Below, piece by piece: positions 3 to 57,295 of a DNA stretch of 64,000 bases. Position numbers and translations under genes: made by a program. Position 1 is the first letter of the stretch; every line of letters begins with the position of its first letter. The stretch lies in IMG/VR virus record IMGVR_UViG_3300043777_000336. One strand, 5' to 3'. The notes below the pieces were generated by a model. It was not told the origin of the DNA. It saw nothing but the letters and a program-made list of their open reading frames with translations, and did not search any database. The stretch is from an uncultured virus (IMG/VR IMGVR_UViG_3300043777_000336) (Duplodnaviria; Heunggongvirae; Uroviricota; Caudoviricetes).

Positions 3-908
3 CCTCTCAACCTCCATTGGCGAACATTCAAAATCCTCCCCGCGACCGTCTCCGAAGACCGTGTCACGTTACCTCTCGTCGAAGAGGACAGCACTCCGCT
101 CAATCTCCACTGGAGAACGTTCCATGTCTCCTTTGAGACCGTATCCGAAGAGCGTGTTACGTTACCTCTCGTTGAAGAGGAGCCCGGTCAGGTGGCTCCT
201 CGACTCCACCGGCAACTTCTTCAGTCTCCGCAGAGCGAAGAGTGGATCCCTAAGCCAGTTCCTCCTCCACCTCCTCCGCCACCCCCAACACCGGCCAAGC
301 CGCAAGCGGGCGGAGCGGCGACTGGATTCAACTTTGGCAACTGGTGGCGATGGAAAGCTGAAGAAGCCTGGAAGCACCCGTTCAGTCCACCGGACTACGA
401 TAAGCTCAAAAAGCAGGTCGATGAAACTGACGATTATGCGGAAGAGCCGAAAGACGAGCCCGCGTTCGAACCGGCCTACTACGTTGTCGAAAAGCCGGTT
501 TATGTCGCTGTCGAGACCAAGGGCCGAGAGACATTCACGGTCATCGAAGTTCCGGCCGAACCGTCCGCAGAGCCCATTGTCGAGTACGCGCCTTTTCCTC
601 TACCTCTGGATGCTACGACGCCGGTTCTCAACGAAGAGCAGCGACATGCGATCCTCGAAGCGAGCGACGCATTCTTGGGAATGGTGAGAGACGAGCTCAG
701 CGCTCCGCTACCGGTCCCAACAGCACCGAAGATCCCGCTTTGGGTATGGGTCGCTGGAGGCGCGCTCGTCATGGCGGCCGGAATTGCGATCGGTGTGGCT
801 CTTTCGCAACCGAAGCCAGACGTGCGCAGGCTCCCGAAGGCAAACCCAGTGAGACGGAAGCGCCCGACAAAGAAGTTTCGGAAACCGGTGAAAAAACGGA
901 AGCGCTGA
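3..908 (+). CDS. Partial (5'-truncated) Pro-rich protein with 31-aa tandem repeat, C-terminal TM helix and basic ANP-containing tail
   Basis: Frame is open from position 3: PLNLHWRTFKILPATVSEDRVTLPLVEEDST / PLNLHWRTFHVSFETVSEERVTLPLVEEE; TM LWVWVAGGALVMAAGIAIGVAL; tail PKANPVRRKRPTKKFRKPVKKRKR. Confidence 0.7.
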   Translation, partial: PLNLHWRTFKILPATVSEDRVTLPLVEEDSTPLNLHWRTFHVSFETVSEERVTLPLVEEEPGQVAPRLHRQLLQSPQSEEWIPKPVPPPPPPPPPTPAKPQAGGAATGFNFGNWWRWKAEEAWKHPFSPPDYDKLKKQVDETDDYAEEPKDEPAFEPAYYVVEKPVYVAVETKGRETFTVIEVPAEPSAEPIVEYAPFPLPLDATTPVLNEEQRHAILEASDAFLGMVRDELSAPLPVPTAPKIPLWVWVAGGALVMAAGIAIGVALSQPKPDVRRLPKANPVRRKRPTKKFRKPVKKRKR

Positions 909-1171: not shown

Positions 1172-1519
1172 ATGGCTCGACGACGCTACCATCGCCGCAA
1201 TCCGACTCAGATGATGCAACTCTCGACCGTGGATACCGTCGTCTTGGGCGGCGTCATGTTGGGCATCATCGGTGCCGTGGTTCTCGTCGCTGCGAATGCC
1301 TCGGCATCGACGAGTGCTCCTACGTCTGCACCTACGCCGGGCGGTGGCGGAGGTGGTAGTGCGACCGCACCTGCGCCTGCACCCCCTGGCTCGACGGCAC
1401 CTGTACCGTCGGCAACAGGACCAGCGAATCAGACGGTCCAGTACGCGCCAGGACAGTGGGCGACCTACGACAGCAATGGTAACCTCGTCGGCAACACGAA
1501 CTTTCCGCCCGGCGGATGA
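1172..1519 (+). CDS. NP-leader single-TM protein
   Basis: MARRRYHRRNP-TQMMQLSTVD-TM, then S/T/P/G-rich tail; TAGTCT 6 nt before ATG. Confidence 0.8.
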   Translation: MARRRYHRRNPTQMMQLSTVDTVVLGGVMLGIIGAVVLVAANASASTSAPTSAPTPGGGGGGSATAPAPAPPGSTAPVPSATGPANQTVQYAPGQWATYDSNGNLVGNTNFPPGG

Positions 1520-1905
1520 CCCCCGGTACGGTCCGGTTCGAGAACGGCGCGACCGTGCGCGTCGACATCGTGAGCGAGCCGACCGAAATGGCGTACGGGC
1601 TCATGGACCGGACTTCGCTGCCCGAAAACGCTGGGATGCTCTTCTGGTTTGGGTCACGTGAAGATCACGTCTTCTGGATGCGCCGTACGCGGATACCACT
1701 TGATCTCGTCTTCGTGGATCGTGACCTTCGCGCAGCCCGGGGACCGCTCTTTGGAGTCGTCGTAGGTGTCCTCACCCTCGAGCCCCTTGATGAGCGACAG
1801 CACTCGATAAAACGGCCTTCGACGTGCGTGCTTGAGGTCAACGGCGGCTGGACGGCCCGACACGGGGTCGCTGTAGGGCAGAAGGTGACCGTTTCCGCGG
1901 ACTAG
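1516..1905 (+). CDS. DUF192 family protein
   Basis: GLMDRTSLPENAGMLF, FWMRRTRIPLDLVFVD, VLEVNGG motifs. Confidence 0.85.
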   Translation: MTPGTVRFENGATVRVDIVSEPTEMAYGLMDRTSLPENAGMLFWFGSREDHVFWMRRTRIPLDLVFVDRDLRAARGPLFGVVVGVLTLEPLDERQHSIKRPSTCVLEVNGGWTARHGVAVGQKVTVSAD

Positions 1906-1969
1906 GGTAGTCTCCTAAGCACGGCCGCGAGAGCGGTCAACCCTCTGTTTTCGACCCCAGGAGAGACCC

Positions 1970-2284
1970 ATGAGAAGGCCGACCGTCAAGAGCGCAGCGT
2001 ATTACCGCGCCAATCCTTTGAGCACTGTCGAGATGGTGGCTGGAGGGCTCGTTGGAGCTGCCATCCTCGGAATTGGTGGCTACCTGCTCTATCAGCACTA
2101 CAACGCGCCAGCTACGACCGCTACGACGGCTCAGCAGCTTGCGCAGCCAGGCCAGTTCGGCAGCGCTAACCCGGCTCCGTACGGCTACGACGCGAACGGC
2201 AACCCGTACCCGTCGCAGAATGCCGCTGACGCCGCGAACCTCACGGGCATCTACACGGTGCCTCCGATGCCCGCGGGCGGTTGA
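1970..2284 (+). CDS. NP-leader single-TM protein
   Basis: YYRANP-LSTVE-MVAGGLVGAAILGIGGYLLY; AGGAG RBS. Confidence 0.8.
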   Translation: MRRPTVKSAAYYRANPLSTVEMVAGGLVGAAILGIGGYLLYQHYNAPATTATTAQQLAQPGQFGSANPAPYGYDANGNPYPSQNAADAANLTGIYTVPPMPAGG

Positions 2285-2315
2285 TTCGCTCACGTCGACG
2301 TGAAGCTGAATCGAC

Positions 2316-2651
2316 ATGGACCCGAACGCAGCTTGGGAGCGTTGGATCATCGCCGTCGCCGACGGTGATCTGCCGGAGGCGCGCGATGCGCACACCGATC
2401 TCACGAGTTGGCTTCGCAGCGGAGGGTTCGAGCCAGATTGGACGCCGCGGGAACGTGCGCAGTTCATGGCATGGCGTGGAGGGCGACGGCTCCCACGCGC
2501 GCCACTGCCCTTGGGTCCGGATGGCGAAGAACCCGCTCGACGGAGAGGGCTGGTTTCGCATTGCGGTAGGAGTCGTGGCCGTTGTCGCGGTTGGAGCAGC
2601 GCTTTGGAGCAAATCGCAAACCGGTTGAGGTCGGGAGGAGAACTTCGATGA
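2316..2651 (+). CDS. Small phage protein (MDPxA...WLxxGGFxP type), overlapping an NP-TM ORF in another frame
   Basis: MDPNAAW...LTSWLRSGGFEPDW resembles 20216..20404 MDPDANL...LNKWLHNGGFLPEAW. Confidence 0.6.
   Translation: MDPNAAWERWIIAVADGDLPEARDAHTDLTSWLRSGGFEPDWTPRERAQFMAWRGGRRLPRAPLPLGPDGEEPARRRGLVSHCGRSRGRCRGWSSALEQIANRLRSGGELR
2521..2628 (+). CDS. Minimal NP-leader TM peptide (35 aa)
   Basis: MAKNPLDGEGWFRIAVGVVAVVAVGAALWSKSQTG. Confidence 0.55.
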   Translation: MAKNPLDGEGWFRIAVGVVAVVAVGAALWSKSQTG

Positions 2652-2914
2652 AAAAGAAGAGGAGCACTGGGTTGGTCATTCACATCGAGCCGGACGCGTA
2701 CGTCGTTTGTACGAAAGGCGGTCGGAAGATCAAAAAGTGTCGGACCATGGAGTCGGCGAAGCGATTCGCCGCCAGTCACATGGAAAAGACCGGGGGTCGT
2801 AGCCTCAGCGTGAAAGGTGCTCGATTCCGGTACGTGCCGGCGGCGAAAGTGCAGGCACGAGCGACGAAGAAGAGGCCGGCGAAGCGGCGCGCGAAGAGGC
2901 GTGGGCGTCGGTAG
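2648..2914 (+). CDS. Highly basic small protein (possible nucleic-acid condensing protein)
   Basis: GGAGG RBS; K/R-rich, ends ATKKRPAKRRAKRRGRR. Confidence 0.65.
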   Translation: MKKKRSTGLVIHIEPDAYVVCTKGGRKIKKCRTMESAKRFAASHMEKTGGRSLSVKGARFRYVPAAKVQARATKKRPAKRRAKRRGRR

Positions 2915-2916
2915 TC

Positions 2917-3276
2917 GTGACCAGGAGGAATCCATACGTCGACGCGCCCAGTGAGGCACTCATCAACCGAGCTCGAAGGATGTTGGGAGCGGGCGCTTCG
3001 GTTCAAGATGTCCACGACGCCTTTGCCGAAGACGGCGTGCCCGAGGAGCAGATCTACCTCGCGATTCAGGCAGCGGAGCAGCTATTGCGCAATCCCATCG
3101 ACGATATTACCGCTCTGGAGCTCATCGTCGGCGGTATTGCAGCGGTCGTATTGACCGGGTTCGGCGGCTACCTCGTCTACACGGCTCTGAATCCGCCGGG
3201 GAGTACTCCTCAGGACACGGCAACGACGCTCGGGGAGGCTTCGTCTTTGGCCACGCTTACGGCGGTGGTGATGTGA
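2917..3276 (+). CDS. NP-leader TM protein with a helical cargo between two NP motifs
   Basis: MTRRNP...~50 aa...LLRNP-IDDITALE-TM ending GYLVY. Confidence 0.8.
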   Translation: MTRRNPYVDAPSEALINRARRMLGAGASVQDVHDAFAEDGVPEEQIYLAIQAAEQLLRNPIDDITALELIVGGIAAVVLTGFGGYLVYTALNPPGSTPQDTATTLGEASSLATLTAVVM

Positions 3277-3304
3277 TGAACCACGCCCTCGCGATGGAGA
3301 GCCA

Positions 3305-3808
3305 ATGAACCTCAGCAATATTCGTCGCGGCTACGGCGAACGAGAACGTCTCGCGATGGCCGGGATGCTTCGACGAGCCGGCTATCCGGAGCCAGGACTG
3401 ACCGCCAAACAACTTCAGCAAGAGGGAATGGATCCGAACGAACTTGCTTGGCGTCTTCGAACCGGACAAACGATCGATCCTAGCGGCGGCGGACCCATGT
3501 GCCGTAATCCTCTCGGTCTCTCGGGTACCGATCTCGTTCTCATCGCAGGAGGTGTCGCTGCGTTCGGCTTCGTAGGGTTTCTCATCTGGAACCAGATGCA
3601 GGTCAACCAAGAGCAGGCGACGGCCGCCGCGAACGGGTATCCCGGACCCGTCATCCAGCCCGCTTCCGCCGCACTCAATCAGTCCGGCGTTCTCGCGTCG
3701 AGTCAAGTCCTCCTCGGTGCGTCGAACATCCTGCCGCCCCCGGGGACGCCCGTAGTGCCACCCGTCTACGTCCCTGGTGCTCCTCCGCTTCTGGTGGCGC
3801 CCACATGA
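3305..3808 (+). CDS. Cargo-fused NP-TM protein
   Basis: ...GGGPMCRNP-LGLSGTD-TM ending GFLIW. Confidence 0.8.
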   Translation: MNLSNIRRGYGERERLAMAGMLRRAGYPEPGLTAKQLQQEGMDPNELAWRLRTGQTIDPSGGGPMCRNPLGLSGTDLVLIAGGVAAFGFVGFLIWNQMQVNQEQATAAANGYPGPVIQPASAALNQSGVLASSQVLLGASNILPPPGTPVVPPVYVPGAPPLLVAPT

Positions 3809-4215
3809 AAGAGCCTGTCTTCATCTCGGTCCGTCCCGGTGGACGCACGGTGCGCTATGAAAAGATTGGCCGGCGCTGGGAAGTCATGCGTAGTAATCCA
3901 ATCGAGGTCACGGGCATGGACTTGTTACTGATTGCGGGCGGTGTCGTTGCGCTCGGAGTTGTCGGATATTTCATCTGGACTGCCACGCAGAATTTGCAGC
4001 CTACGGTAAACGCGTCGGGCGGCGAAGGAAACGCACCTGAAGCTACCGATAGCTCGCAGGGACAATTCATCAACGTCAACGGTCAGCCTTTAGGGCCGTC
4101 CGCGAGCACTTCAGGAATTGATTTTTCTCAGCTGCAACCGGTAGCGCCAACTGCGCCAGCTCTCAGTCCTCTACTATCCAGAGGACCCCCTCCTCCGCTA
4201 CCAGCAGGATTTTGA
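3805..4215 (+). CDS. Cargo-fused NP-TM protein
   Basis: ...EVMRSNP-IEVTGMD-TM ending GYFIW. Confidence 0.8.
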   Translation: MKEPVFISVRPGGRTVRYEKIGRRWEVMRSNPIEVTGMDLLLIAGGVVALGVVGYFIWTATQNLQPTVNASGGEGNAPEATDSSQGQFINVNGQPLGPSASTSGIDFSQLQPVAPTAPALSPLLSRGPPPPLPAGF

Positions 4216-4688
4216 TGAAGACTGAAGCGCAAATACGACGATGGGAGCGAAACCCGCTCCCGCTCGGACTTACCCCCGTCGAGCTCGGACTGATTGCGGC
4301 AGGCGTCGGCGTCGCGGGCTATATCGCCTACCTGTTCTATAGTGCGTCACAAGCCGCATCCGTGCCCTCGAGTCCCACCATCAGCGTTGCCGCTGGAGAA
4401 CCGGGTACGGTTCAGGCCCCCACCTGGACCGGTGCCATCCTCGGCTCTGGTTATTTCTGGGGCGATCAGGGTAACGTGCAGCCACCCGCGCTGCTCGGCA
4501 CGGTCAAAGCTCTCGCGATGACCTCGTACGGCCTCGCGTCGACGATCACCGGCACGGTCTACATCCCCCTATCGCCGGCCGGCAATGTTTCGTTCTTCGT
4601 GACCGGACAGACGCCCGAGGATCCAAATAGCGGTGTCTCGTACGGACAGGCCATCACGCTACCTCTTTCGTATGTGAGCGCGGCGTAG
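4215..4688 (+). CDS. NP-leader TM protein with beta-rich C-terminal domain
   Basis: RRWERNP-LPLGLTPVE-TM ending GYIAYLFY. Confidence 0.8.
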   Translation: MKTEAQIRRWERNPLPLGLTPVELGLIAAGVGVAGYIAYLFYSASQAASVPSSPTISVAAGEPGTVQAPTWTGAILGSGYFWGDQGNVQPPALLGTVKALAMTSYGLASTITGTVYIPLSPAGNVSFFVTGQTPEDPNSGVSYGQAITLPLSYVSAA

Positions 4689-4696
4689 GAGCGAGC

Positions 4697-5593
4697 ATGA
4701 AAGTTATCCAAGACGATTTGTGGCTTTGCCAAGACTGCACCATCTACTCGGTCAATGGGGATACGTCTGGTATCGACTCCGAGGAGCGCGAGAAGGAAGT
4801 CGTCGAAGGTGTCAATGCGCTCGGGCCGCATCTCGTACCGGACTTCGACTCCGAGACGAACGAAGGTATCGAAGAGTTCTCGCGGCGACAGTGCGACGCA
4901 TGCGGTACGCGCCTCGGCGGTTCACGGGACCGGTTTGCGATCCTGGGTGAAGAGAGTCCCGAGGACGATCATCAGCGACACCGTATCGGGGCTCGACGGC
5001 CGCGAAAGTCACGGGAAAATGTGAAAGTCATGAGCGCAGAGAATCCTATTTCCGATCTGTCATGGGGGGAGATTGCGCTTATCACCGCTGGTGTTGGCGT
5101 CCTGGGGTACATCGTTTATTCCCTCTGGAATGCGACCGACTCGTCCGGAGCGGATGCGGCTCAGGCTTGGCAGGAGTCGCAGGCCACAGGTGCATCGGGT
5201 TTGCCGCAGGGTGTTGGGCAGTTCCAACAGATTGCCGGAGGGACTGCTCCCGTAGGAGGGACGGACTGGGCTACACAACAAACTTACGGGCCAGGGAATC
5301 CTGTCACAGTCGAGACGATTTCAGCATCAGACAGTCGCGTTTGCGGAAACGGAGGAACGACAGGATATTGTGATCAAGATCAGGGCAATACGACCGTTCC
5401 GTCTGTCGGCGATACCGTTGCTATCATTCTCCAAAATGAAGCCACAGGAAATACGTATCCGTTCCATGGTACCGTGCAATCGACAGACGGACAGACAGTC
5501 ACGTTCGTAGATTCGCAGGGCATCGGTTGGAATTATCCTCTTTCTTTCGTTCTGTCGGGTCCTGCCCTTGTCGCAGCGTACGTTGGTCTATGA
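4697..5593 (+). CDS. NP-TM protein with Zn-finger cargo and C-terminal domain
   Basis: CQDC...CDAC cargo; MSAENP-ISDLSWGE-TM ending GYIVYSLW. Confidence 0.8.
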   Translation: MKVIQDDLWLCQDCTIYSVNGDTSGIDSEEREKEVVEGVNALGPHLVPDFDSETNEGIEEFSRRQCDACGTRLGGSRDRFAILGEESPEDDHQRHRIGARRPRKSRENVKVMSAENPISDLSWGEIALITAGVGVLGYIVYSLWNATDSSGADAAQAWQESQATGASGLPQGVGQFQQIAGGTAPVGGTDWATQQTYGPGNPVTVETISASDSRVCGNGGTTGYCDQDQGNTTVPSVGDTVAIILQNEATGNTYPFHGTVQSTDGQTVTFVDSQGIGWNYPLSFVLSGPALVAAYVGL

Positions 5594-5799
5594 AAACCGA
5601 CGCGCAAATCCTTCGCGGACAGATCCCTTGCTGCAAATGTGGCAAGGCGATTGCTGAGAACGCGGCGCGCATGATCTTGTACGCCTCGCCTCTGATTTTT
5701 TCGGCCGCCTGCATTCCGTGCGCTCAGAACGAAGCCGGGCTGAATCATGAGCTCGTGAAATTGCCGGTTCCGAGGCCAGGAACGATTCTGAGGCCGTGA
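5590..5799 (+). CDS. Small Zn-finger protein
   Basis: CCKC...CIPC; ATGA coupling. Confidence 0.55.
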   Translation: MKTDAQILRGQIPCCKCGKAIAENAARMILYASPLIFSAACIPCAQNEAGLNHELVKLPVPRPGTILRP

Positions 5800-6113
5800 T
5801 GCGCTCTCGCCGAAACCCCGACAGCATCCTCTCGCAAATCGCGGTCAACACGACCCAGGACATCGTCCTGGCCGCGCTCGGTGTCGCGATCGTCGGCGGT
5901 GTCATCTACCTCGTTTACAAGAAGTCGACGGATGCCGGTACGTCGGTTGGCGAAGCTCTTGCGACCGAGGCGTCTTTTTGGTCGAGCACGCTCTTCCCAG
6001 GGCAGGGCGCGCAAGTCGAGCAGACTACGCCCTACGGCACGCTCGCTGAACAAGGTCCCGGCGCTTCCGTCCAGGGTGGTGCAGCTGTCACGGAAGGAGG
6101 CGGGTCGTCGTGA
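5796..6113 (+). CDS. NP-leader single-TM protein
   Basis: MRSRRNP-DSILSQIAVNTTQD-TM; close paralog of 6334..6639. Confidence 0.8.
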   Translation: MMRSRRNPDSILSQIAVNTTQDIVLAALGVAIVGGVIYLVYKKSTDAGTSVGEALATEASFWSSTLFPGQGAQVEQTTPYGTLAEQGPGASVQGGAAVTEGGGSS

Positions 6114-6337
6114 GTCCGCTCGGACAGGCCATTTTGGATCAGTGCGCCGTGCTTGCGGCGCTCAAGCCCTATTGCGACGAAGCGCCGACCGCCGCGGACG
6201 CGAAGCAGGAGGAGATCTCTGACGAAGACCTCACCGAGTGGCAAGCCCGCGCCAAGGTCGCGCGCCCTGCGTGGAAACGTGCGCTCGCGCGGCTCATGGA
6301 CATGTTGGACGGATACTCGGGGGAACCCACCCCATGA
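6110..6337 (+). CDS. Hypothetical protein
   Basis: GTGA/ATGA-coupled ORF between two NP genes. Confidence 0.55.
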   Translation: MSPLGQAILDQCAVLAALKPYCDEAPTAADAKQEEISDEDLTEWQARAKVARPAWKRALARLMDMLDGYSGEPTP

Positions 6338-6639
6338 AGCGCAAGCGTAATCCAACGACTGTTCTTCAACAGGTCGAGGTGAATCTCATCCAAGATGCCG
6401 TGCTTATCACGGCCGGCGTCGTGATCGTGGGCGTCGTCGGCTACCTCATCTACCAGAAGCTTCAGAGTGCAGTGCCTACCGTCCGAAATACTCTGCCTCT
6501 CCTGTTGTCAACGACTCCGGGCGTGGACCCGCTACCGCCTATCGACATGCCGGGTCGAGGAAGCGAGACCGTGCCCTTCACCAGCGACGCGAGCGGGACC
6601 ACCAGCGGGCCCGACAACACTCTCGTCGCGATCGGTTGA
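6334..6639 (+). CDS. NP-leader single-TM protein
   Basis: MKRKRNP-TTVLQQVEVNLIQD-TM ending GYLIY. Confidence 0.8.
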   Translation: MKRKRNPTTVLQQVEVNLIQDAVLITAGVVIVGVVGYLIYQKLQSAVPTVRNTLPLLLSTTPGVDPLPPIDMPGRGSETVPFTSDASGTTSGPDNTLVAIG

Positions 6640-11010: not shown

Positions 11011-11484
11011 TCAGTACCCCGGGTTCGAAGGACTGACGGGTTGCACGGGTGTGGGCGTCGGTACGGGAGCGACGGGAGCGCTCACAACCGTCGAGACGGT
11101 CGACTTGATCGACCAGTACGCGAGCACGCCGAGGACGACCGTGGCTCCGCCGACGACTGCTGCCGCTTCCCAGGGGGAGAGCCCTGCTCCACCGACGGCG
11201 ACGCGCGACGAGTAGTCGAACAGCTCGGGGGAGGTGGGGTTCGCTCCTCGATGGTATGGGTCGGCGGGGTCGGGATCGTGGCGATGGATCTCGTAGTAGA
11301 GCTCCGTGGCTTTGCGCTGGTGGTAGCGCGCCTGCTTCATGTCGCCGGCTTCCTTAAATGCGAGGGAAGCCTGCGCGTGGAGCTGACGCGCTTCCCGCAG
11401 TTGCTTCTCGGAACCTGTGCGACGCCCCTGGTCAGCTCGAAGCTCGGCGCGAAGAGCGAGCGAGTGCGCTCGACGGAGGCTCAT
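11011..11484 (-). CDS. Cargo-fused NP-TM protein
   Basis: Helical cargo, HRGANP...LSPWE-TM ending LAYW, P/T-rich tail. Confidence 0.7.
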   Translation of the reverse strand: MSLRRAHSLALRAELRADQGRRTGSEKQLREARQLHAQASLAFKEAGDMKQARYHQRKATELYYEIHRHDPDPADPYHRGANPTSPELFDYSSRVAVGGAGLSPWEAAAVVGGATVVLGVLAYWSIKSTVSTVVSAPVAPVPTPTPVQPVSPSNPGY

Positions 11485-40457: not shown

Positions 40458-40555
40458 GCAGCCGGTCGTCGTCTACCTCATGAAGGGCGAGGCGCGAAAT
40501 ACGCTGCAATCCTGACCTCTTGACGATTTTGTGCCTGATGCACCAAAAGTACCTA

Positions 40556-40590
40556 TTGACTCCTCAGGTGCCTATTGCTACAAGAGTGAC
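40556..40590 (+). promoter_or_regulatory. Sigma70-like promoter of the Ro60 gene (likely leaderless)
   Basis: TTGACT-17 nt-(TG)TACAAG, 6 nt before ATG 40591; CCTATTG direct repeat. Confidence 0.55.
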
Positions 40591-43749: not shown

Positions 43750-44027
43750 GCCCGGACGACACCCTCCCTTGCCCGGCATCGGTTCCACCGCCGGGTGAGG
43801 ACGCGGATGCTCGCGAAGAACGCGCGAAGGCAACCTACGCAGCATACTGCAACATGCGTTCGTTCCTCAAAGGACCGGCCCACATCCTTCGACCTTGGGA
43901 TGGGCTTCCCCCTGATGAGCGCGAGGCGTGGCGCGAGGCGGCTGACGTCGCCTACAACCACGTGATAGTGTCCTCATATGAACCACCACTACCACCGAGT
44001 TCACCCCCGTCTCCGCGGCGTCCGTAG
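43746..44027 (+). CDS. Hypothetical protein
   Basis: RAKATYAAY...PWDGLPPDEREAWREAA. Confidence 0.5.
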   Translation: MSPDDTLPCPASVPPPGEDADAREERAKATYAAYCNMRSFLKGPAHILRPWDGLPPDEREAWREAADVAYNHVIVSSYEPPLPPSSPPSPRRP

Positions 44028-45291
44028 CCTCGCCGCCTCGCCGAGCTTTCCCGCCGGCTCGCTCTCGCCCGCGCAGATCCTCACTGCGTACGGCTTCAAG
44101 CAAAACCAGTTCGCCGGAATCCAGAGCGTCAAGCTCGGCATCGGCAGTCTCGGCGGCGGCGTCGTACAGGCCGACATCGACAACTCGGTCGCGCGCTGGG
44201 GTATGGCTGCACCGAAGCTGACGGTGCGGACTGTCGACGGCGCGGTCAACGACCCGTCGTCCGATCAAGACTCGAACGTCGAGAACATGCTCGACATCGT
44301 GCCGACCATGGCATTTTGCTGGTGGTGGCTCACCGGAGCGCCTGCCGACATCACGATCTGCTTCGGCCCCAACGTCGGCGCAGGCATGGCGCTGGTAACC
44401 GAAGACCTCGTCGCGGCTGGCGTGGAAGTCATGAGCTGGTCGTGGGGCTCGGCAGCAGACCAGTGGGCCGCTTCCGATCGAGCCGCTCTCTCCAAAGCAT
44501 TTGCGGACGGAGTCGCCAAGGGCGTCACGTTCTTCGCGGCAGCCGGCGACAACTCGATCGACGACGGCGACTCCGCTCCATCGGCGGACTACCCGTGCTC
44601 CGATCCGAACGTCTGGGCCGTCGGTGGTACTCATCTCGTCATCGACGCGAGCGGAGCTCGATCGGACGAATCAGCCTGGGGAGACGGAAACCCGGGCGAC
44701 GAAGGCGGCGGCGGCGGATTCGATCCAACCGTACCTCAGCCATCCTTCCAGAACGGTATCGTACCCGGTACGAGTCGCGGCGTTCCAGATACTTCGGCAG
44801 ATGCCGATCCGAATTCCGGTTGGCAAATGTCCGCAAACGGCTCGTGGACCGTCATCGGCGGTACGAGCGCATCGTCACCGTTCACTGCTGCGTTATGCGC
44901 AATCGCTCGAGGCGTCGCGAAGGGCGCCATCAACGGTCGGCTCGTGGCGGACATCTACTCCGCTCGAACGACGGCGTGCAACGATATCACCAAGGGCTCA
45001 AACGGTGATCCGGCAACGGTTGGCTGGGATCCCGCGACCGGCCTCGGCTCACCAAACGGTCCGGCGTTCATCAGCGCTCTCTCGTCCGTGCCCATCACCG
45101 GACCCGCTCCCACTCCACCAATTCCTCCGCCCGTTCTACCTCCGCCTCCTACTCCTGCACCGACCGCAACACTGGGTCAGGCAGAGCAGTGGGCTATGCT
45201 CGGTTTACGAAATCACTGGGCCCCTCCAGCCACGCTCGCGCAAGCTCAGGAGTGGGCAAGCTTGGGATTGAAAAATCACTGGCCGAAATAA
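43978..45291 (+). CDS. S53 (sedolisin/kumamolisin) serine-carboxyl peptidase without recognisable propeptide
   Basis: ENMLD, SWSWG, AAAGDN, RGVPD, GGTSASSP, GWDPATGLGSP; duplicated C-terminal ATLxQAxxWAxLGLxNHW. Confidence 0.9.
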   Translation: MNHHYHRVHPRLRGVRSLAASPSFPAGSLSPAQILTAYGFKQNQFAGIQSVKLGIGSLGGGVVQADIDNSVARWGMAAPKLTVRTVDGAVNDPSSDQDSNVENMLDIVPTMAFCWWWLTGAPADITICFGPNVGAGMALVTEDLVAAGVEVMSWSWGSAADQWAASDRAALSKAFADGVAKGVTFFAAAGDNSIDDGDSAPSADYPCSDPNVWAVGGTHLVIDASGARSDESAWGDGNPGDEGGGGGFDPTVPQPSFQNGIVPGTSRGVPDTSADADPNSGWQMSANGSWTVIGGTSASSPFTAALCAIARGVAKGAINGRLVADIYSARTTACNDITKGSNGDPATVGWDPATGLGSPNGPAFISALSSVPITGPAPTPPIPPPVLPPPPTPAPTATLGQAEQWAMLGLRNHWAPPATLAQAQEWASLGLKNHWPK

Positions 45292-47051: not shown

Positions 47052-47315
47052 ATGCGAAACTACCGAGGCAACCCCATCTCGACCGGTCAGAAGGTCGCCA
47101 TCGCCGCAGTAGGCGTCGTCGCGGTCTCGCTCATCGGCTACCTCGTCTACGAGTCGACCGCCTCCGCGAGCACGTCAAGCACGGGAACAGGAGCCACAGG
47201 AGCGACCGGCGCGACCGGGAGTGCCGTCGGACTCACTGGAGCAACCGGGATGGGACGACTCCAAAGAGCTCCCGGTCCGGTAGGTTCGTCGGCGCCGGTT
47301 GGCGTTGGCGGCTGA
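47052..47315 (+). CDS. NP-leader TM protein with GAT repeats
   Basis: MRNYRGNP-ISTGQK-TM ending GYLVY; TGATGATGATG. Confidence 0.8.
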   Translation: MRNYRGNPISTGQKVAIAAVGVVAVSLIGYLVYESTASASTSSTGTGATGATGATGSAVGLTGATGMGRLQRAPGPVGSSAPVGVGG

Positions 47316-47386: not shown

Positions 47387-47545
47387 ATGAACATCTATTT
47401 GGCGCCGCTGGTTCTCGTCATCGCGATACTTCTCATGCTCTTCGGCAACGCGAAGGCGCAGCAGTTCACTCCGGCCATGTACTGGCTCGGCTGGGCATTC
47501 ACGCTCTACGAGTTCAGCTCGAAGGTCGCGCTGTCAATTCACTAG
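47387..47545 (+). CDS. Small 2-TM protein
   Basis: MNIYLAPLVLVIAILLMLFG...; GGGAG RBS. Confidence 0.55.
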   Translation: MNIYLAPLVLVIAILLMLFGNAKAQQFTPAMYWLGWAFTLYEFSSKVALSIH

Positions 47546-48120
47546 AACGTGATCGTTCCTGGGCTCGAGCTCACCACTATCTCGGGCGGCGCGACGAACG
47601 GGTGCGCCTTGATCCAATCGGCAGCCATCCCCGAGCGCCGATCGGCTTGCTCTTCGTGCTCGACGCAGTGGCCAACGGTATATCCGCTGAGATCGTGGCA
47701 GGTCTTGTACGACGCGCGGATGTGCCGCAGACCGGCACGCAGGCAGCTCGGGCGGTCGGTGACGACTTCCCCGGGCCAGAGATGGAGTTGAAGCAAACAT
47801 TTCGCATGTCCGTTGTCCCCGAGCTTGACCAGCATGTCGACGTCCTCGCGGTATCCGCCGCTCTCGAATCTGGCGACGCTCGCAAGGAGCACAGCAGTCT
47901 TCACGCGCCCGTCGAGCTCTCTAGTTTGCTTCTCGACCGTGGCACTCCGGAAGACGGGAGGCTCGTCGGGGTCGAGCGATACGTCGGCGATGTCGGCTGC
48001 GATGTCGCTGTAGCGAGCCAGCGTGTACTCGTCGCTGACACCCAAGAAACGGTGGTTTGCGACAGGGTAGTGAGCGGTCATGAAGGCGAGGATGTAGGCT
48101 TTCAGGGCTAGATTCAGCAT
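47542..48120 (-). CDS. Lysozyme-fold/lytic transglycosylase-like protein
   Basis: LLASVARFESGG...GDNGHAKCLLQLH. Confidence 0.6.
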   Translation of the reverse strand: MLNLALKAYILAFMTAHYPVANHRFLGVSDEYTLARYSDIAADIADVSLDPDEPPVFRSATVEKQTRELDGRVKTAVLLASVARFESGGYREDVDMLVKLGDNGHAKCLLQLHLWPGEVVTDRPSCLRAGLRHIRASYKTCHDLSGYTVGHCVEHEEQADRRSGMAADWIKAHPFVAPPEIVVSSSPGTITF

Positions 48121-48194: not shown

Positions 48195-49013
48195 ATGGCG
48201 AAGAGCTCTGTCAAGGCCACTGCAATACGTCGCGCCCGGAAGTTCGAGGACGTCGCCCGGTACTACTACGATCACGGCGACTTGGCCCAGGGCGACCAAT
48301 ACCAGGCTCGAGCCAATCAGTATTGGCGGGACGGCGGAAAGCCTCAGATGATCAAGGCTCTCCAAGGCAGCTCGGCGGCGAACCCCGTCCAGTACGACTA
48401 CTCCGAACGGACCGGACGCTACGAACGCGTAAGTCCGCCCGTCCCTCCGGTGGGTCGAATCGACTTTCACCGCATACCACTCAATCAGGGCGGCTACGAC
48501 CGACGCGGCGAATACTTCGGTCAGGGTGCTCCTCTCTACGAATGGTACGACGAGGAGTCTCAAAGAAGTTACTTCACCCGAGCGAGCTCTCGCGCCCAAG
48601 CCAAAACGTACTTCGAAAATGTACGCCGACATCTTGTCGAATACGGCGGCCACGGATGGTGGGGACAGAAGAACCCAGGAAAAGGAAATCCCATGCGAAC
48701 CTATCAAGGCAATCCCATCTCTGACGGTCAGAAGATCGCCATTGGCGCGGCAGCCGTCGCGGTACTCGGACTCGTCGGCTACTTCATCTACCAGCAGACG
48801 TCGTCCTCATCCTCGCAGGCCGCCGCGGGCAGTGGAGGAGGCACCATTTCGAGCGGCCAGCAGCCCTACCAGCTCGGTACGTCGACATCGACGAGTATGC
48901 CGGCCGCAAGCGCTCAGGGAACCATCGACTACTCGACCTCGACAGCGTACGCGCCGGGCTACTCAGCCGCGAACCCACCTCCTCCCGCAGCGGTCAACCT
49001 CGGCGACGTCTGA
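48195..49013 (+). CDS. Polyprotein-like NP-TM protein with two cargo domains
   Basis: SAANP, QKNP, KGNP, QGNP; cargo 2 contains LNQGGYDRRGEYFGQGAPLY; TM ending GYFIY. Confidence 0.8.
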   Translation: MAKSSVKATAIRRARKFEDVARYYYDHGDLAQGDQYQARANQYWRDGGKPQMIKALQGSSAANPVQYDYSERTGRYERVSPPVPPVGRIDFHRIPLNQGGYDRRGEYFGQGAPLYEWYDEESQRSYFTRASSRAQAKTYFENVRRHLVEYGGHGWWGQKNPGKGNPMRTYQGNPISDGQKIAIGAAAVAVLGLVGYFIYQQTSSSSSQAAAGSGGGTISSGQQPYQLGTSTSTSMPAASAQGTIDYSTSTAYAPGYSAANPPPPAAVNLGDV

Positions 49014-49022
49014 GGTCACGAC

Positions 49023-49592
49023 GTGTCGTTCAAGCACAAGAGCACCGTCATCTATAAGGTCCATCCCGAGCCGGGTGGTGGCGAGCGTTCGGGCCACGTT
49101 AGCGTTCGGACCGATCGACACGCGAAGGGCGGCTGGTGGACCGTCAGCAATAAGGCCATCGTCCAAGCCCTTGTCGACGGCAGCTATTTGAACAGCTGGA
49201 TGATCGCAGACGATGTCGTCATCGAAGGAGACGACGACGGCGTCTTGTTTATTACATACTACAAGAGAGGTAGAGAAGAGCCACTCTACCAACTCGAGTA
49301 CGAACGACACCATCACATCGACGAACCGTCCAAAAGCTTCTTCGGGAGCGAACCTTCCAAACCAAACCCAACCTCCGATTCATCGACTCTCCAGACCGTA
49401 GGCTGGATCGCGTTCGGCGTTACGGTTGTAGGGCTCGCCGGGTGGTGGCTCTACTCGACCTCGAAAGCGAACACGGCTGCGACGCAGGCTCAGAACGTTC
49501 TACTACCCGCACAGCCCGCGCAGACGCCGCAGACGCAAGATCAAGTTCCACCGTTCATTCCATCTGACGTGTCACAGCCGATTGGAGTTTGA
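49023..49592 (+). CDS. Cargo-fused NP-TM protein
   Basis: ...SKPNP-TSDSSTLQ-TM ending GWWLY. Confidence 0.75.
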   Translation: MSFKHKSTVIYKVHPEPGGGERSGHVSVRTDRHAKGGWWTVSNKAIVQALVDGSYLNSWMIADDVVIEGDDDGVLFITYYKRGREEPLYQLEYERHHHIDEPSKSFFGSEPSKPNPTSDSSTLQTVGWIAFGVTVVGLAGWWLYSTSKANTAATQAQNVLLPAQPAQTPQTQDQVPPFIPSDVSQPIGV

Positions 49593-50008
49593 CCATGCGT
49601 AGAAGGTCTCGACGAGAGTACGACCGAACAAATCCGACCGGTTCCCCTCGGGCCGGCCTCTACGTTGCGCCAGGCCCGCTCTCAACCGGCGAGAAGGTCG
49701 GTCTCGTCGCGGCGGGTGCTGCTGTGCTCGGAATCGTCGGCTACCTCATCTACAAGAGCTCGTCCTCGACAGCCGCTGCGACCCCACCCGCCACGACCGC
49801 AAATCCAACGGCAAACTACCCCGTTGTGCAGACGCCGATCGCCCAGCCTCCCAACATCCTTGCCGGCGGCCCCGTCAATCCGACCGGCGGCCAGATCTAC
49901 GACCCGAACTTCGGTGTAACAGGTCCGACGAGCGAAACGACAATCGGCGGCCAGGTCTACGATCCGAACCTCGGCGGCAGCGGCGCCATCATGCCGAGCG
50001 GAGGCTAA
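49589..50008 (+). CDS. NP-leader TM protein
   Basis: RRRSRREYDRTNP...LSTGE-TM ending GYLIY; GGQxYDPN twice. Confidence 0.8.
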   Translation: MTMRRRSRREYDRTNPTGSPRAGLYVAPGPLSTGEKVGLVAAGAAVLGIVGYLIYKSSSSTAAATPPATTANPTANYPVVQTPIAQPPNILAGGPVNPTGGQIYDPNFGVTGPTSETTIGGQVYDPNLGGSGAIMPSGG

Positions 50009-50011
50009 ATC

Positions 50012-50581
50012 GTGGCCCGAACTGTCGTCATGCTCGGTCGTGGTGTATCCGTTGAGAGAGCTGCTGGATCAAAGGACTGGTACGTCTATCACACACGTCG
50101 AACCGGCATGTGGACATGGACCCCAAATGAACGGATCTCAGGCCCCTTTCGAGACAAACAACAGGCCATTCTCAGCGCGCAAGACATCAGTAGCCGAGTC
50201 CCGATTCCGTGGGGAGAACCTGACTATAAATACGTCCCGGGCGATGGTCCTCATGGCGATCCACGCCACGCATACCCCGGCGACGACGTTCCACTGACGA
50301 TAGGAGAACCCATGCGTCGATATCGCCGAAGAAACCCTCTCACCTCGACTGAGGATCTCGTCATCGCCGGCTTCGGGCTCGCCGTGGCGGGGCTCATCGG
50401 CTACGCCATTTACTCGAAGGGACAAGCGACGGCAGCTGCACCTGCAAACCCGAACATCTCGACGGCGCCGAGCCAGGCCCAGCAGGAAGCCTACGATACC
50501 TGGGTCATGCAGCAGATTCAGCTAGGAAACGTCTCGCCGGCTCAAGCCTCAGCCGCCGGAGCGATTCCGTCGGGAGGCTAA
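50012..50581 (+). CDS. Cargo-fused NP-TM protein with internal start at 50312
   Basis: ...GEPMRRYRRRNP-LTSTED-TM ending GYAIY; AGGAG before internal ATG. Confidence 0.8.
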   Translation: MARTVVMLGRGVSVERAAGSKDWYVYHTRRTGMWTWTPNERISGPFRDKQQAILSAQDISSRVPIPWGEPDYKYVPGDGPHGDPRHAYPGDDVPLTIGEPMRRYRRRNPLTSTEDLVIAGFGLAVAGLIGYAIYSKGQATAAAPANPNISTAPSQAQQEAYDTWVMQQIQLGNVSPAQASAAGAIPSGG

Positions 50582-50584
50582 GTC

Positions 50585-51100
50585 GTGCCTGAGCTATTCA
50601 AGTTCGCCAAGTGGAGTGACGTCCTCGCATACGCACGTAGTGGCGGCCCGCTCTACTACCAGGCACCGTTGGACGCTCGACCGACGAAGCTCTATCCAAA
50701 GACCTATAGCGGGTGCGAATCATGCTACTTGGTTCGCGCCCGTACGATTCGTATCTGGCCGTACGGATCGGTTGGCCGTAGTCGAAGACGTACTTCCGAC
50801 CCGTTCACTGCTGACGTCGATCACCTAGAGCGGTTCAGCGCCCCTGAAGAGCCGATGCTTGGCGACGACTCTTTTCGAAACCCACTCACACAGTCCACGG
50901 ACGCCGAGCACCTCAAGATGACCACCATGGTCGTCGGTGGACTCGCTGCCGCGGGCATCGTCGGCTACATCATCTACAAGGTCAGCCAACCTGCAACGCC
51001 CGTCGTCTCCGCAGCGATGCCGCCCGGCATCCTCGGACCGGGTGGATCGACGACGCCAGTGGGTCCCGTAGCGAACCCGACCGGACCACAAGGAAGCTGA
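50585..51100 (+). CDS. Cargo-fused NP-TM protein
   Basis: ...SFRNP-LTQSTDAE...TM ending GYIIY. Confidence 0.8.
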   Translation: MPELFKFAKWSDVLAYARSGGPLYYQAPLDARPTKLYPKTYSGCESCYLVRARTIRIWPYGSVGRSRRRTSDPFTADVDHLERFSAPEEPMLGDDSFRNPLTQSTDAEHLKMTTMVVGGLAAAGIVGYIIYKVSQPATPVVSAAMPPGILGPGGSTTPVGPVANPTGPQGS

Positions 51101-51102
51101 CC

Positions 51103-51324
51103 ATGAAAAGACGAACAAGTCGCAATCTCGCCCACTGCTGCGAAAACCCACTCACCACGTTCACGACCGAACAGGCCATCTACCTCACGGTCGGCGGCAT
51201 CGTGGCGGCTAGCGTCTTCGGCTACCTCCTCTACAATGCCGGCAAGAGCACACAGCAGATCGCCGACCTGCAAGCCTACCAGGCCGGAACGTTCGGACAG
51301 GCCACGACGACCGCGGGAGGCTGA
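51103..51324 (+). CDS. NP-leader TM protein
   Basis: MKRRTSRNLAHCCENP-LTTFTTEQ-TM ending GYLLY. Confidence 0.8.
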   Translation: MKRRTSRNLAHCCENPLTTFTTEQAIYLTVGGIVAASVFGYLLYNAGKSTQQIADLQAYQAGTFGQATTTAGG

Positions 51325-51325
51325 C

Positions 51326-51574
51326 ATGGCGAATCTCGGTTACCCCATCGAAGTCGGTTCTCTAGGCGCGGTTCTGGGTATCGGCGCGGCCATTCTCTCG
51401 AGCGGTGGCGACTCGCGCAAGATCGCGCAGATCGGCGGCATGACCGCGGCTGGCGCCGGACTCGGTATGGCCCTCGACCCCGAAGGCGGCGAAGCCGAGG
51501 CCATCGCGGGAACACTCATCGCGATCGGTGGCATCATCGCGGCCGTCTTCATGGGGAACGGGGCGCGATCGTAG
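51326..51574 (+). CDS. Gly-rich multi-TM protein
   Basis: GxxxG-rich hydrophobic segments; GGAGG RBS. Confidence 0.65.
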   Translation: MANLGYPIEVGSLGAVLGIGAAILSSGGDSRKIAQIGGMTAAGAGLGMALDPEGGEAEAIAGTLIAIGGIIAAVFMGNGARS

Positions 51575-52360
51575 TCAAACCCTACTCGATAGCGGCGCAT
51601 TTCTAGGAAGTCCTTGTAACTCCAAGGCCTGTCTCGCGTCTCTGGGAAGACCCAACTGCCTATTCTTGAAACGCTGTATGGCAGAATATAGTCCTTGAAC
51701 GGACATCTCGAATTGTGCCGACAGCTCACTTACCGAGACTCCGATTGAAATAAGTTTCAGTATTCGATTCATGTCTTCATCGGAGATTCTAGACTTGTGC
51801 CGGACAGTTGTACCGTTGAGTCTAGACGTCTCCCAAGCCTTACGAGCCGCCGCGCGCAAGGTCTCTGGTCCCTTAGTCGCAATCGCTTTGTTGACAGATT
51901 TGGTCCGTTCCTCTTTTGGAATTCTCGATTTTGCTGATCGAAGAATCTCGCTCAGCCCAGGAACGGTAACTGCACACTGACCGCCTGGCGCAACGTTATA
52001 ACCACGAGGTGATCTGCTATCTAGTTTCGAAATCCAAAATCTCTCTCGTTCATTCGCTTCAGACCTGCCGATAACCTCTTCTAAAAGCTCGTGTCTAAAA
52101 CTGTCGGCGCCGAACTTACATATAGCTTGTTGCAGTTTAGTGAGTCTTCCATTTCGTCGAGACGTATTGACCTCGTCTCGCCACCGCCGCAGCACCGATC
52201 GAGCCGACACATCCGCATATTTCAGCTCCTTCGTTCGATGCTTCACTTGTCCCACGTACCGTTTCCCATCGTTAGGTCGAGTGCCCGAACCGCGCGGATC
52301 AGCATCGTTAGTGCGAACGTAAATCGAGAAGATCTCGATGTTGTTTCCTGCGCCTTCCAC
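51575..52360 (-). CDS. GIY-YIG homing endonuclease-like protein (start uncertain), antisense insertion
   Basis: SIYVRTN...RYVGQ, R, ANERERFWI...GYNVAPGG; C-terminal HTH; lower GC. Confidence 0.85.
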   Translation of the reverse strand: MEGAGNNIEIFSIYVRTNDADPRGSGTRPNDGKRYVGQVKHRTKELKYADVSARSVLRRWRDEVNTSRRNGRLTKLQQAICKFGADSFRHELLEEVIGRSEANERERFWISKLDSRSPRGYNVAPGGQCAVTVPGLSEILRSAKSRIPKEERTKSVNKAIATKGPETLRAAARKAWETSRLNGTTVRHKSRISDEDMNRILKLISIGVSVSELSAQFEMSVQGLYSAIQRFKNRQLGLPRDARQALELQGLPRNAPLSSRV

Positions 52361-52376
52361 AGGTAGACTGTACCCC

Positions 52377-52679
52377 ATGGCACGTCGGTTTCGGAAGCCA
52401 AACCCGCAGCAAGAAGACGGGATCTCTACGAACACGATCTTGATCCTCGGCCTAGGGACCGCCCTACTCGGTGCCATCGCGTACGCCGTGTACCAGATCA
52501 GCCAGACCAACGCTGCCATCGCCGATGCTTCACAATCCGCAGCCGGAGTCGGCGAGCAGATCGGATCCGCGGCAGTAAGTGGGCAATCGGCCGCAGATCA
52601 GATTGCCGCTCTGAATCAACAGATTCAAGACATCCAAAACAGTGCCCTCTACCAACGATTGAACCAGGGGCTCCAATGA
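52377..52679 (+). CDS. NP-leader TM protein with coiled-coil tail
   Basis: MARRFRKPNP-QQEDGISTN-TM ending AYAVY. Confidence 0.8.
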   Translation: MARRFRKPNPQQEDGISTNTILILGLGTALLGAIAYAVYQISQTNAAIADASQSAAGVGEQIGSAAVSGQSAADQIAALNQQIQDIQNSALYQRLNQGLQ

Positions 52680-52930
52680 GACGACGAAAGAACCCTATGG
52701 CCGTTCCGGTATACGACGCGGCTATTCTCATCGGCATTGGCGTGGTCGTAGGTGGTGTCGCGTACTTTCTCTACTCCAAGAGCCAATCAAACTCGTTGGT
52801 TACCGACACCGGAGGACCGCAGCAGGTACCCGGCGCATCTCCAGGCGTAGTCAACCTCGGCCAAGGTGGGACGAGCGGAAACCTACCACTCGGTCAAGAA
52901 TCGACTCAGACGGGCCCCGCAGGGACGTGA
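52676..52930 (+). CDS. NP-leader TM protein
   Basis: MRRRKNP-MAVPVYD-TM ending AYFLY. Confidence 0.8.
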   Translation: MRRRKNPMAVPVYDAAILIGIGVVVGGVAYFLYSKSQSNSLVTDTGGPQQVPGASPGVVNLGQGGTSGNLPLGQESTQTGPAGT

Positions 52931-53703: not shown

Positions 53704-54221
53704 TCATGGGACGAATTGCGGTGAGACAGGCTGGCGTTGGGAGACGACCGCGCGGCCTCGGACAGGTGCTTCCCACGTGTGCGAGCCTCGACGCGTCGCA
53801 GAACATCCCGCAGGGAATTCTCGTTGCCGGTGGAGGTCTCGCGACGCTCGTAGGGGTCATCGGCGCCATCTTCTCCGACCAGTACCGCAAGCAGTTCGCT
53901 ATCGCGGCGGGCGCAGGCATCGTCTCGAGCTTCATCGGCGGGCTTTGGGCGGGTAGCACGTTCACGTTCTCGCCGCAGTGTACCGGACCCGGCATGCCGT
54001 CGCTCGGCGCCGCCTCGGTCAATCCAGACCAGTCCACGCCCGCAGGACAGCAGCCCGGACTCTTCGGACCCTCCACGCCCACGCCATCAGTGCTGCAAGC
54101 CACAGCTGCCAACCCTCAGGTCACAGACGCTCAAGGCAACGTGTGGTCTCAACCGACTCCACCGCAACCACTCACGCCCGCGCAGCAAGCCCAGATGAAT
54201 TACGCTGCCAGTTTGCCGTAA
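53700..54221 (+). CDS. RGLGQ-leader 2-TM protein, tandem paralog of 54232..54744
   Basis: RRPRGLGQ-VLPTCASLD...PQGILVAGGGLATLVGVIGAIFS...PQCTGPG. Confidence 0.8.
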   Translation: MIMGRIAVRQAGVGRRPRGLGQVLPTCASLDASQNIPQGILVAGGGLATLVGVIGAIFSDQYRKQFAIAAGAGIVSSFIGGLWAGSTFTFSPQCTGPGMPSLGAASVNPDQSTPAGQQPGLFGPSTPTPSVLQATAANPQVTDAQGNVWSQPTPPQPLTPAQQAQMNYAASLP

Positions 54222-54231
54222 AGAGGAAACC

Positions 54232-54744
54232 ATGCTCAAGCGAACACGAAGAGGTTTCGGTCAAACGCCTGGCGCGACAGCCGGAGCGATCATGACCCCG
54301 GGCTACGCGCCACCAACGCCCCCAACGCAGTCGACCGTGGGCTTGCCCACGTGCGCGAGCATCGACTACTCGACGACCGTTCCACAGGGTATCCTCATCG
54401 CTGGAGGGGGTATCGCCACGCTCGTCGGTGTCATTGGCGCGATCTTCTCTGAAGACTACCGGAAGGAATTCGCCGTCGCGGCAGGTGCCGGGCTCGTCTC
54501 GAGCCTCCTCGGTGGTATCTGGGCAGCAGCGTCGATGCCACAGCTCATCCAGAACCAGTGGAACCCGCAGTGTACGGGTCCCGGGGTCGCATGGCTCGAC
54601 GGCGCCTCGGTGAATTCGGACCAGACGACGCCACCAGGGCAGGTTCCGACTGGCACGAATTGGGGTCAGAGCGTAGGAGGCGCAGATCCGAACTTTTACG
54701 CCAACCCGGCCAACCAAAGCACAACGTCGTCCGCTGGCGTCTAG
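54232..54744 (+). CDS. RGFGQ-leader 2-TM protein
   Basis: RTRRGFGQ...LPTCASID...PQGILIAGGGIATLVGVIGAIFS...PQCTGPG. Confidence 0.8.
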   Translation: MLKRTRRGFGQTPGATAGAIMTPGYAPPTPPTQSTVGLPTCASIDYSTTVPQGILIAGGGIATLVGVIGAIFSEDYRKEFAVAAGAGLVSSLLGGIWAAASMPQLIQNQWNPQCTGPGVAWLDGASVNSDQTTPPGQVPTGTNWGQSVGGADPNFYANPANQSTTSSAGV

Positions 54745-55208: not shown

Positions 55209-55547
55209 ATGAGAAGGGCAACCTACGATCGAGAAAATCAATTGTCGACCACGGAAGGGGTGCTCATCGCTGCCGGTGTCGTCGTTTTGATCCTTGTGGG
55301 CTACGGCATCTACATCTCGGCCAGCGGCGCAAGCAGTCTCATGAACGCTTTCATCGCGGCCAACCCAGGAGTACCCGCTACCTCGGCGAATCTTCAGGCG
55401 TGGCTTCAGACCCCTGCGGGGCAACAGGCTCTCACGACGAATGCGCCGTCCTATCTTCCACCGCCGACACCTCAGACTCCGCCCGTCACACCTCCGGTTG
55501 CCCCTACTTCGTTCATGGGACCGGCTTACGGCGGATCTCCGGTGTAG
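55209..55547 (+). CDS. NP-family variant (NQ) TM protein
   Basis: MRRATYDRENQ-LSTTE-TM ending GYGIY. Confidence 0.75.
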   Translation: MRRATYDRENQLSTTEGVLIAAGVVVLILVGYGIYISASGASSLMNAFIAANPGVPATSANLQAWLQTPAGQQALTTNAPSYLPPPTPQTPPVTPPVAPTSFMGPAYGGSPV

Positions 55548-57017: not shown

Positions 57018-57123
57018 GGGTCACGAATCTATCTGGTACACGGGCGTATTGCAAACCGACGGCCGTGACGTCGATTCGACTTGCATCAGGTTTCCTTTGG
57101 ATACATAATGCAGCAAGAGCGAA
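57018..57123. promoter_or_regulatory. Divergent sigma70-like promoters
   Basis: Minus strand TTGCAA-17-TAGATT, 8 nt before ATG 57017; plus strand TTGCAT(57081)-17-CATAAT. Confidence 0.6.
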
Positions 57124-57294: not shown

Positions 57295-57295
57295 C

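Follow-up and report, generated by a model that had tools for sequence, protein, structure and literature searches.

Asn-Pro motifs at the joints of membrane-anchored proteins in an uncultured virus and a candidate protease that may cut them

A 64,000-nt stretch of DNA from an uncultured soil virus (IMG/VR record IMGVR_UViG_3300043777_000336; hereafter the window) encodes many proteins in which the dipeptide Asn-Pro (NP) lies close to a transmembrane (TM) segment, and in related genomes the presence of NP at such junctions tracks an unclassified gene, here called X. From these sequences it appears that the X product may cut at Asn-Pro and free membrane-tethered cargo inside the virion, a reading that we hold in roughly equal belief and doubt. 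If correct, it would name the enzyme and the signal of virion maturation for a large group of uncultured tailless bacterial viruses, would describe an easily evolved route by which proteins are loaded into a membrane-containing capsid, and would allow NP positions to predict mature protein ends across these genomes. Action at Asn-Pro would also be an unusual specificity for a protease. In the literature searched, consisting mainly of abstracts with few subscription journals and no supplements, the Asn-Pro motif, gene X and the virus group were undescribed.

NP motifs at the domain boundaries of ORF 48195-49013

The ORF at 48195..49013 (+ strand) encodes a 272-aa protein organized as cargo 1-NP-cargo 2-NP-NP-NP-TM followed by a S/T/P-rich tail. 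NP occurs at aa 63, 160, 165, 173 and 260, five occurrences against 0.6 expected, with Pro following five of the nine Asn residues. When scored with a codon model trained on the other window genes, the annotated frame gave the best score for all four segments of the ORF. An earlier sequence-only reading had described an ORF with NP at its domain boundaries; this ORF is real, with a hairpin-NP-domain 2-NP-NP-NP-TM layout and NP enrichment beyond chance. That reading had also named structure prediction as a check on whether NP lies in inter-domain linkers, and in an AlphaFold2 model covering aa 1-206 (alignment of 85 rows, deep for domain 2 only; mean pLDDT 78, pTM 0.42) the four boundary NPs lay outside folded elements. 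Domain 1 (aa 1-58; 48195..48368, +) was modelled as a helical hairpin with helices at 4-58 and then a low-confidence linker at 54-61. NP63 (48381..48386, +) marks the boundary between domains 1 and 2 immediately ahead of the first strand at aa 67, and corresponds to the N-terminal NP of the domain-2 proteins P0002, P0003 and P0007. Domain 2, with the signature LNxGGYD..G.Y.G.GAPLY, spans aa 65-149 (48387..48641, +), the fold itself consisting of strands and a helix at aa 67-149. No secondary structure was predicted for aa 150-176, the region holding NP160 (48672..48677, +), NP165 (48687..48692, +) and NP173 (48711..48716, +). NP160 closes the domain-2 module and is invariant in all five proteins of domain-NP-TM order, NP165 abuts an internal Met167 (48693) that marks the start of an older NP-TM gene and has an AGGA 6 nt 5' of its ATG, and NP173 is the TM module's own NP, as in the paralogue at 47052. 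The TM helix (48723..48794, +) starts at aa 177 and is basic on its N-terminal side, which would face the cytoplasm or virion interior. The fifth motif, NP260 (48972..48977, +), absent from the earlier reading, lies in the Pro-rich tail across the TM and not at a boundary, and is probably compositional.

A cargo-less paralogue of the C-terminal half, from Met167 onwards, is present at 47052..47315 (+; E 1e-12). The orthologue in G007, a 127.5-kb complete record with terminal repeats that is syntenic with the window and has homologues of 74 of the 121 window genes, is likewise a short basic-NP-TM gene without cargo. Together these suggest that cargo domains were added ahead of an NP-TM gene that was older and stood alone; the earlier term 'polyprotein' holds in this sense and not in that of an RNA-virus-style polyprotein. 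The proposed resemblance of domain 1 to the cargo encoded by the gene at 11011..11484 (-), a helical cargo-NP-TM gene whose G007 orthologue carries a different cargo, was not significant (BLASTP E 0.25; shuffle p 0.06; within-window phmmer E 2.5), and both look like generic helical hairpins. Neither proteins of 149-476 aa nor 12 related genomes yielded a homologue of domain 1, the best E in the genomes being 0.06, and a fold search gave no informative match. For the entire ORF, no match was obtained with Pfam or PHROG family scans, no usable match among Atlas features (structure rows with TM scores of at most 0.44) and nothing in Foldseek at E 0.001, a VIA fold search returning only generic helical-hairpin rows. 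Single-protein and close-alignment scans of viral sequences yielded no relative, and a metagenome scan found one 1.1-kb contig.

NP is enriched beside TM segments throughout the window

The 121 window genes called by a codon model comprise 32 with a TM and 89 without. In 19 of the 32 TM genes an NP was present within the 35 aa preceding the TM, compared with a mean of 2.7 and a maximum of 11 in 2000 shuffles. Overall, TM genes contain 39 NPs against 11.7 expected, and the non-TM genes show no excess (30 vs 24.8). The residue following NP is mostly L, I or T. The 25 junction NPs draw on both codons for Asn (AAC 13, AAT 12) and on each of the four for Pro. AAYCC occurs 40 times in frame compared with four times in the two other frames, indicating that selection acts on the protein. 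That NP is instead the by-product of a DNA-level feature, such as a recombination site or a ribosome-binding spacer (AAYCCC-ATG) involved in gene shuffling, is hardly credible. It would fit NP165 and an NP of locus L031, each directly ahead of a retained Met, and the frequent CCC or ACC before start codons in the window, and may explain such single NP-Met junctions; the codon and frame data largely refute it as a general account, and most NPs lie well inside reading frames.

The NP lies on the more basic side of the TM in 17 of the 19 genes, the remaining two being ties. Under the positive-inside rule the basic side of a TM faces the cytoplasm, and so the NP side is predicted to do the same. 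In several sequences the Asn is retained while the next residue varies, as in LQQNP (G001) and LQENR (G006), LQENA, LQENF and RENQ (window 55209), as expected of a P1 residue.

NP-bearing TM genes are grouped. A first array of (cargo)-basic-NP-TM genes occupies 1172..6639 (+) and includes ORF 2917-3276, in which, as had been pointed out, a segment is bracketed by RRNP and LRNP. A second (cargo)-NP-TM array (49023..52930, +) follows ORF 48195-49013, and a member of opposite orientation, TM-NP-basic tail, lies at 192..908 (+). Comparison of window and G007 orthologues showed NP to be kept in 15 of 16 pairs, often with a different upstream cargo. The gene at 7561-8094, whose G007 orthologue has DP in place of NP, is probably an exception outside the NP signal set. 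The N-terminal cargo of the gene at 4697-5593 is a free-standing gene in G001 (E 7e-24), and by sequence similarity this gene appears to be a second instance in which a borrowed cargo has been joined to an NP-TM anchor. Genes resembling GIY-YIG and HNH homing endonucleases are present at 51575-52519, 38146-38799 and 30159-30479, one of them within an NP-TM array.

Domain 2 in other proteins

Domain 2 is a widespread small phage domain, with 2,086 representatives at E 0.001; neither Pfam nor PHROG has a family that it matches. A short gene of its own is its form in nearly all of 18 viral loci, with any NP present in 5 of 18, and it occurs as an unnamed protein in Caulobacter phages CcrPW and CcrColossus and in Achromobacter AchV4. 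From 152 proteins, 23 with a hydrophobic segment were picked as a TM-bearing set. NP lies between domain 2 and the TM in 19 of these, five in the order domain-NP-TM (including the query) and 14 in the order TM-NP-domain, and the four without an intervening NP are P0011, P0035, P0142 and P0151. NP also separates successive cargoes in P0019 and P0023 and is present in the soluble multi-domain proteins P0008, P0053, P0116 and P0149; domain joints without NP are the second of P0012 and the first of P0079. Within the domain-2 core there are 8 NPs per 8,288 aa, compared with 84 per 14,133 aa outside it. A small helical domain of MDPxA..-type, encoded in the window at 20216-20404 and 2316-2651, is fused to domain 2 in P0079 and P0116, which are NP-containing soluble proteins.

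These data support the view that NP is more than just a piece of the membrane anchor. NP occurs on either side of the TM according to orientation and also far from any TM: P0002, P0003 and P0007 lack domain 1 and start with NP directly ahead of domain 2, and soluble multi-domain proteins carry it too. A candidate reader or protease gene that tracks NP (below) points the same way. That NP is a cut site is plausible, but the domain joints and TM proteins without NP speak against it, and an uncut docking tag would leave an identical pattern.

The window derives from a probable tailless virus

The virion core module of G007, which maps upstream of the point where the window starts, comprises gene X, three capsid-like genes and genes for a transglutaminase (TGase)-like protein and for an Arg-rich core protein with several TMs. 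For the 403-aa capsid candidate of G001, a more distant relative, a homologue is present in G007 (E 9e-16) and not in the window. This candidate was modelled as a jelly roll with insertions (pLDDT 72.7), and its best viral match in VIA was SPV1 (6oj0_T; Z 5.9, 138 aligned, rmsd 3.7), followed by HCIV-1 (Z 5.3) and HHIV-2 (Z 5.1). These scores are middling, the viral rows being tied with cellular jelly rolls and a non-viral chain ranking first (Z 6.0), and Foldseek returned nothing at E 0.001. PHROG scans of 113 window genes and Pfam scans of 84 further G007 proteins detected no terminase, portal or HK97 capsid. The jelly-roll model, taken with this lack of tailed-phage families, suggests that the virus is likely tailless and membrane-containing.

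Helvetiaviruses have an FtsK-like packaging ATPase. No Walker-A match was found in the virion modules of G001 or G007 and no FtsK/A32 Pfam match in G007, although a divergent ATPase might escape such a search. SPV1 (Portogloboviridae) has no packaging ATPase (PMC8812541), and SPV1, HCIV-1 and HHIV-2 are the viruses providing the best viral fold matches to the capsid candidate. The present group differs from these single-jelly-roll viruses in its genome size of 60-130 kb, its dozens of TM proteins, its TGase-like protein and gene X, and the literature searched held no NP system in viruses of the SPV1, HCIV-1 and HHIV-2 type. Neither the capsid candidate nor gene X identified a provirus in GTDB genome contigs, and capsid, TGase and gene X had no match in annotated phage records.

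Gene X co-occurs with NP

Among related genomes the occurrence of NP near TMs is lineage-specific. In NP-rich genomes the gene immediately upstream of that for the basic core protein is X, encoding a soluble, unclassified His/Cys protein of 130-200 aa. It is absent from the window and its available 76.8-kb contig and is seen only in relatives, in G007 at 47544-47942 (-) with a provisional start. His143, Cys170, Cys73, Asp64, Tyr131 and Arg133 are invariant in 40 X sequences, 39 of them identified as homologues, and in 19 more diverse sequences the His and both Cys are still invariant. A profile of the 40 sequences had no PDB sequence match at E 10 and no match in Pfam or PHROG, and hence the proposed protease activity rests on the conserved His/Cys, residues that could instead bind metal.

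With loci anchored on the capsid gene, NP was present at the junction of core arm and TM in 11 of 11 distinct X-bearing loci and 0 of 21 X-less loci. Excluded before this count were near-duplicates (L061, L064, L082, L086 and L090) and incomplete loci (L037, L073, L085, L094, L097 and L098), and L084 was scored by eye. When whole records were searched, X turned up in all six X+ records and in none of the 24 X- records, of which 18 were at least 90% complete; L088 was outside this search. Genome-wide, NP near TMs was more frequent than expected in six X+ genomes (65 vs 19.5) and not in six X- genomes (10 vs 12.2); of the X+ genomes, G036 alone showed no enrichment (2 vs 1.3). In quick capsid trees, the second built without near-duplicates, one fragment and four long-branch rows, 2-3 changes were needed and a single X-less clade was not rejected (AU p 0.72), so that the co-occurrence may rest on a single joint loss. 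Both X and NP are kept in the nearest X+ relative of the X-less clade (L070, G035).

These counts also bear on a purely structural reading, under which NP would form a turn or helix-cap, terminate basic stretches that bind nucleic acid or lipid, and hold domains away from the membrane, no partner being involved. Asn-Pro is a common turn and N-cap, and RR is enriched near TMs as much as NP. Core arms and TM proteins of the X-less relatives are nevertheless equally basic yet lack NP at the junction, and many NP sites have no adjacent basic run (e.g. SSAANP, YVLSNP and LQANP), making this account distinctly improbable.

Complex prediction for X with a 36-aa NP junction peptide scored 0.35 against 0.00 for the best control, with at least 64% of contacts agreeing between runs and a partner pLDDT of at least 44. 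Of 157 solved pairs 116 reached the mark used, as did 2 of 215 mismatched ones, and passes at 0.60 or under comprised 18 of the 157 solved pairs and both passing mismatches. The modelled complex may be taken as weak support, passes of this kind being wrong more often than right unless the interaction is likely beforehand. It bears on binding and not on cutting, and would suit the main rival reading, unlikely but tenable, in which NP is an uncut docking or packaging tag, x-x-N-P being bound by X, capsid or scaffold so as to gather membrane proteins and their cargo. Such a tag would explain the enrichment, linker position, inner-side location and co-occurrence with X just as well as cleavage. 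However, one tag per protein would be enough, yet NP recurs between successive cargoes and several times along basic arms (ORF 48195-49013, P0019, P0023 and P0068, and the core arms of G001 and G008 with five each), and X retains its invariant His/Cys pair.

Cleavage at NP by another agent, for which the TGase-like Cys protein, the S8 protease of the window (43978-45291), a host protease and Asn self-cleavage were considered, seems improbable. The TGase-like protein has an intact Cys-His-Asp in all seven genomes aligned, NP-rich and NP-poor alike (the G004, G005 and G007 members scoring above the Pfam cut-off), but it is equally present in X-less, NP-less genomes, and it was rejected as the NP reader as its presence does not track NP. 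An S8/S53-like protease of 437 aa without an obvious prodomain is encoded in the window and kept in G007, but searches of G001, G004 and G005 at E 1e-3 gave no S8 homologue. Self-cleavage has a precedent in the Asn-Pro autocleavage of FlhB-type proteins, where in FlhB/YscU the NPTH motif lies within a folded C-terminal domain; here no NPTH is present in the called window genes and the NP sites are in variable, disordered linkers.

Units of the form (R/A/M)-E-[AST] recur in the Arg-rich arms of the L033-L035 and L070-L102 core proteins, and A-S/R-x-G-G-G-M often closes X-less cores ahead of the first TM. These elements may constitute a second processing motif, one on which the TGase-like protein perhaps acts. 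A swap of NP for E-[AST] repeats in X-less relatives was rejected, as the X-bearing cores L070 and L101 carry the repeats too.

Proposed mechanism and comparison with known systems

Returning to cleavage by X, the virus would infect bacteria and be large, tailless and membrane-containing, with dozens of single-pass membrane proteins in its virion. These would insert with the NP side inward and become enclosed by the virion membrane, Asn-Pro separating each anchor from the basic peptides or borrowed cargo on the inner side and likewise joining the Arg-rich, putatively DNA-condensing arm of the core protein to its membrane part. X would recognize x-x-Asn-Pro and cut during maturation, freeing domain 1, domain 2 and basic arms. 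The freed proteins would be delivered with the DNA, and the core's basic arm would be released onto it. New cargo could be gained by placing a domain plus NP beside an existing NP-TM gene, and by such 'tether and release' any domain, including early effectors from tailed phages, could be packaged as an NP-TM fusion. The joint claim that Asn-Pro-specific cysteine proteases form a new family founded by X, and that this modular scheme operates in a widespread, undescribed group of 60-130 kb jelly-roll membrane viruses, is put forward tentatively, with doubt somewhat outweighing belief. As gene X and its substrates are small, the hypothesis is directly testable in E. coli without virus or host.

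The adenovirus protease (AVP), which acts in the maturation of core precursors, has a Gly-based consensus. X had no detectable sequence relation to AVP in PDB, Pfam or PHROG, and the adenain family had no match among 113 window and 84 G007 proteins. AVP is a His54/Cys122 protease acting on several core precursors, and the likeness lies in a small virus-encoded His/Cys protein and in short sites repeated in virion precursors that include a histone-like basic core (PMC4246237). That adenain-type trait, a repeated short site in basic core precursors, is present here as the NP junction of all 11 X-bearing loci; the differences are a bacterial virus, membrane-tethered substrates, an Asn-Pro site and a cleavage that is predicted. 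Prohead proteases of T4 and giant phages similarly act on a short motif repeated along the propeptides of many head proteins, as proposed here. The SPN3US protease gp245 cuts after AXE, a motif repeated in head-protein propeptides, and cleavage is tied to inner-membrane release and to cargo ejected with the DNA (PMC10052503). Those systems belong to tailed phages, of whose terminase, portal and HK97 capsid families no member was detected here, and in the genomes analysed every cargo has a TM anchor of its own, to which it is fused, and cargoes are exchanged from one genome to another.

Sorting-signal systems such as sortase LPXTG and those of archaeo- and exosortases also pair a short motif next to a TM helix with a dedicated Cys/His enzyme that recognizes it, the two co-occurring across genomes. 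Their motif sits on the outer side, ahead of a C-terminal TM that a basic tail follows, whereas NP occupies the basic side of TMs of either orientation and occurs in soluble proteins too. The 2A StopGo sequence is DxExNPGP; no NPGP is present in the called window genes, where different residues mostly follow NP.

Further features of the window and related genomes

The S8/S53-like protease gene adjoins a holin-like gene (42929). Ro60/TROVE (40531-42261) and RtcB ligase (57358-58869) genes form an RNA-repair pair in the window, neither being listed in G007. A conserved block upstream of the virion module in G007 (55359-59743), with equivalents in G004 and G005, encodes a long Gln/Pro-rich protein, a JAB/RadC-domain protein and a small beta protein. 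In the TM-rich virus record L008 (G002), domain 2 stands alone, NP is not in excess, X is absent and the capsid profile used gave no match. A second N-terminal motif, ending L-G, is found ahead of the outer domains of many TM proteins, as RGLGQ in the window and VxWLG in G001 and G006. It occurs in the window at 35481-36140, 6877-7353 and 53706-54744 and in virion genes of L001 and L037, and is possibly a separate export or processing signal.
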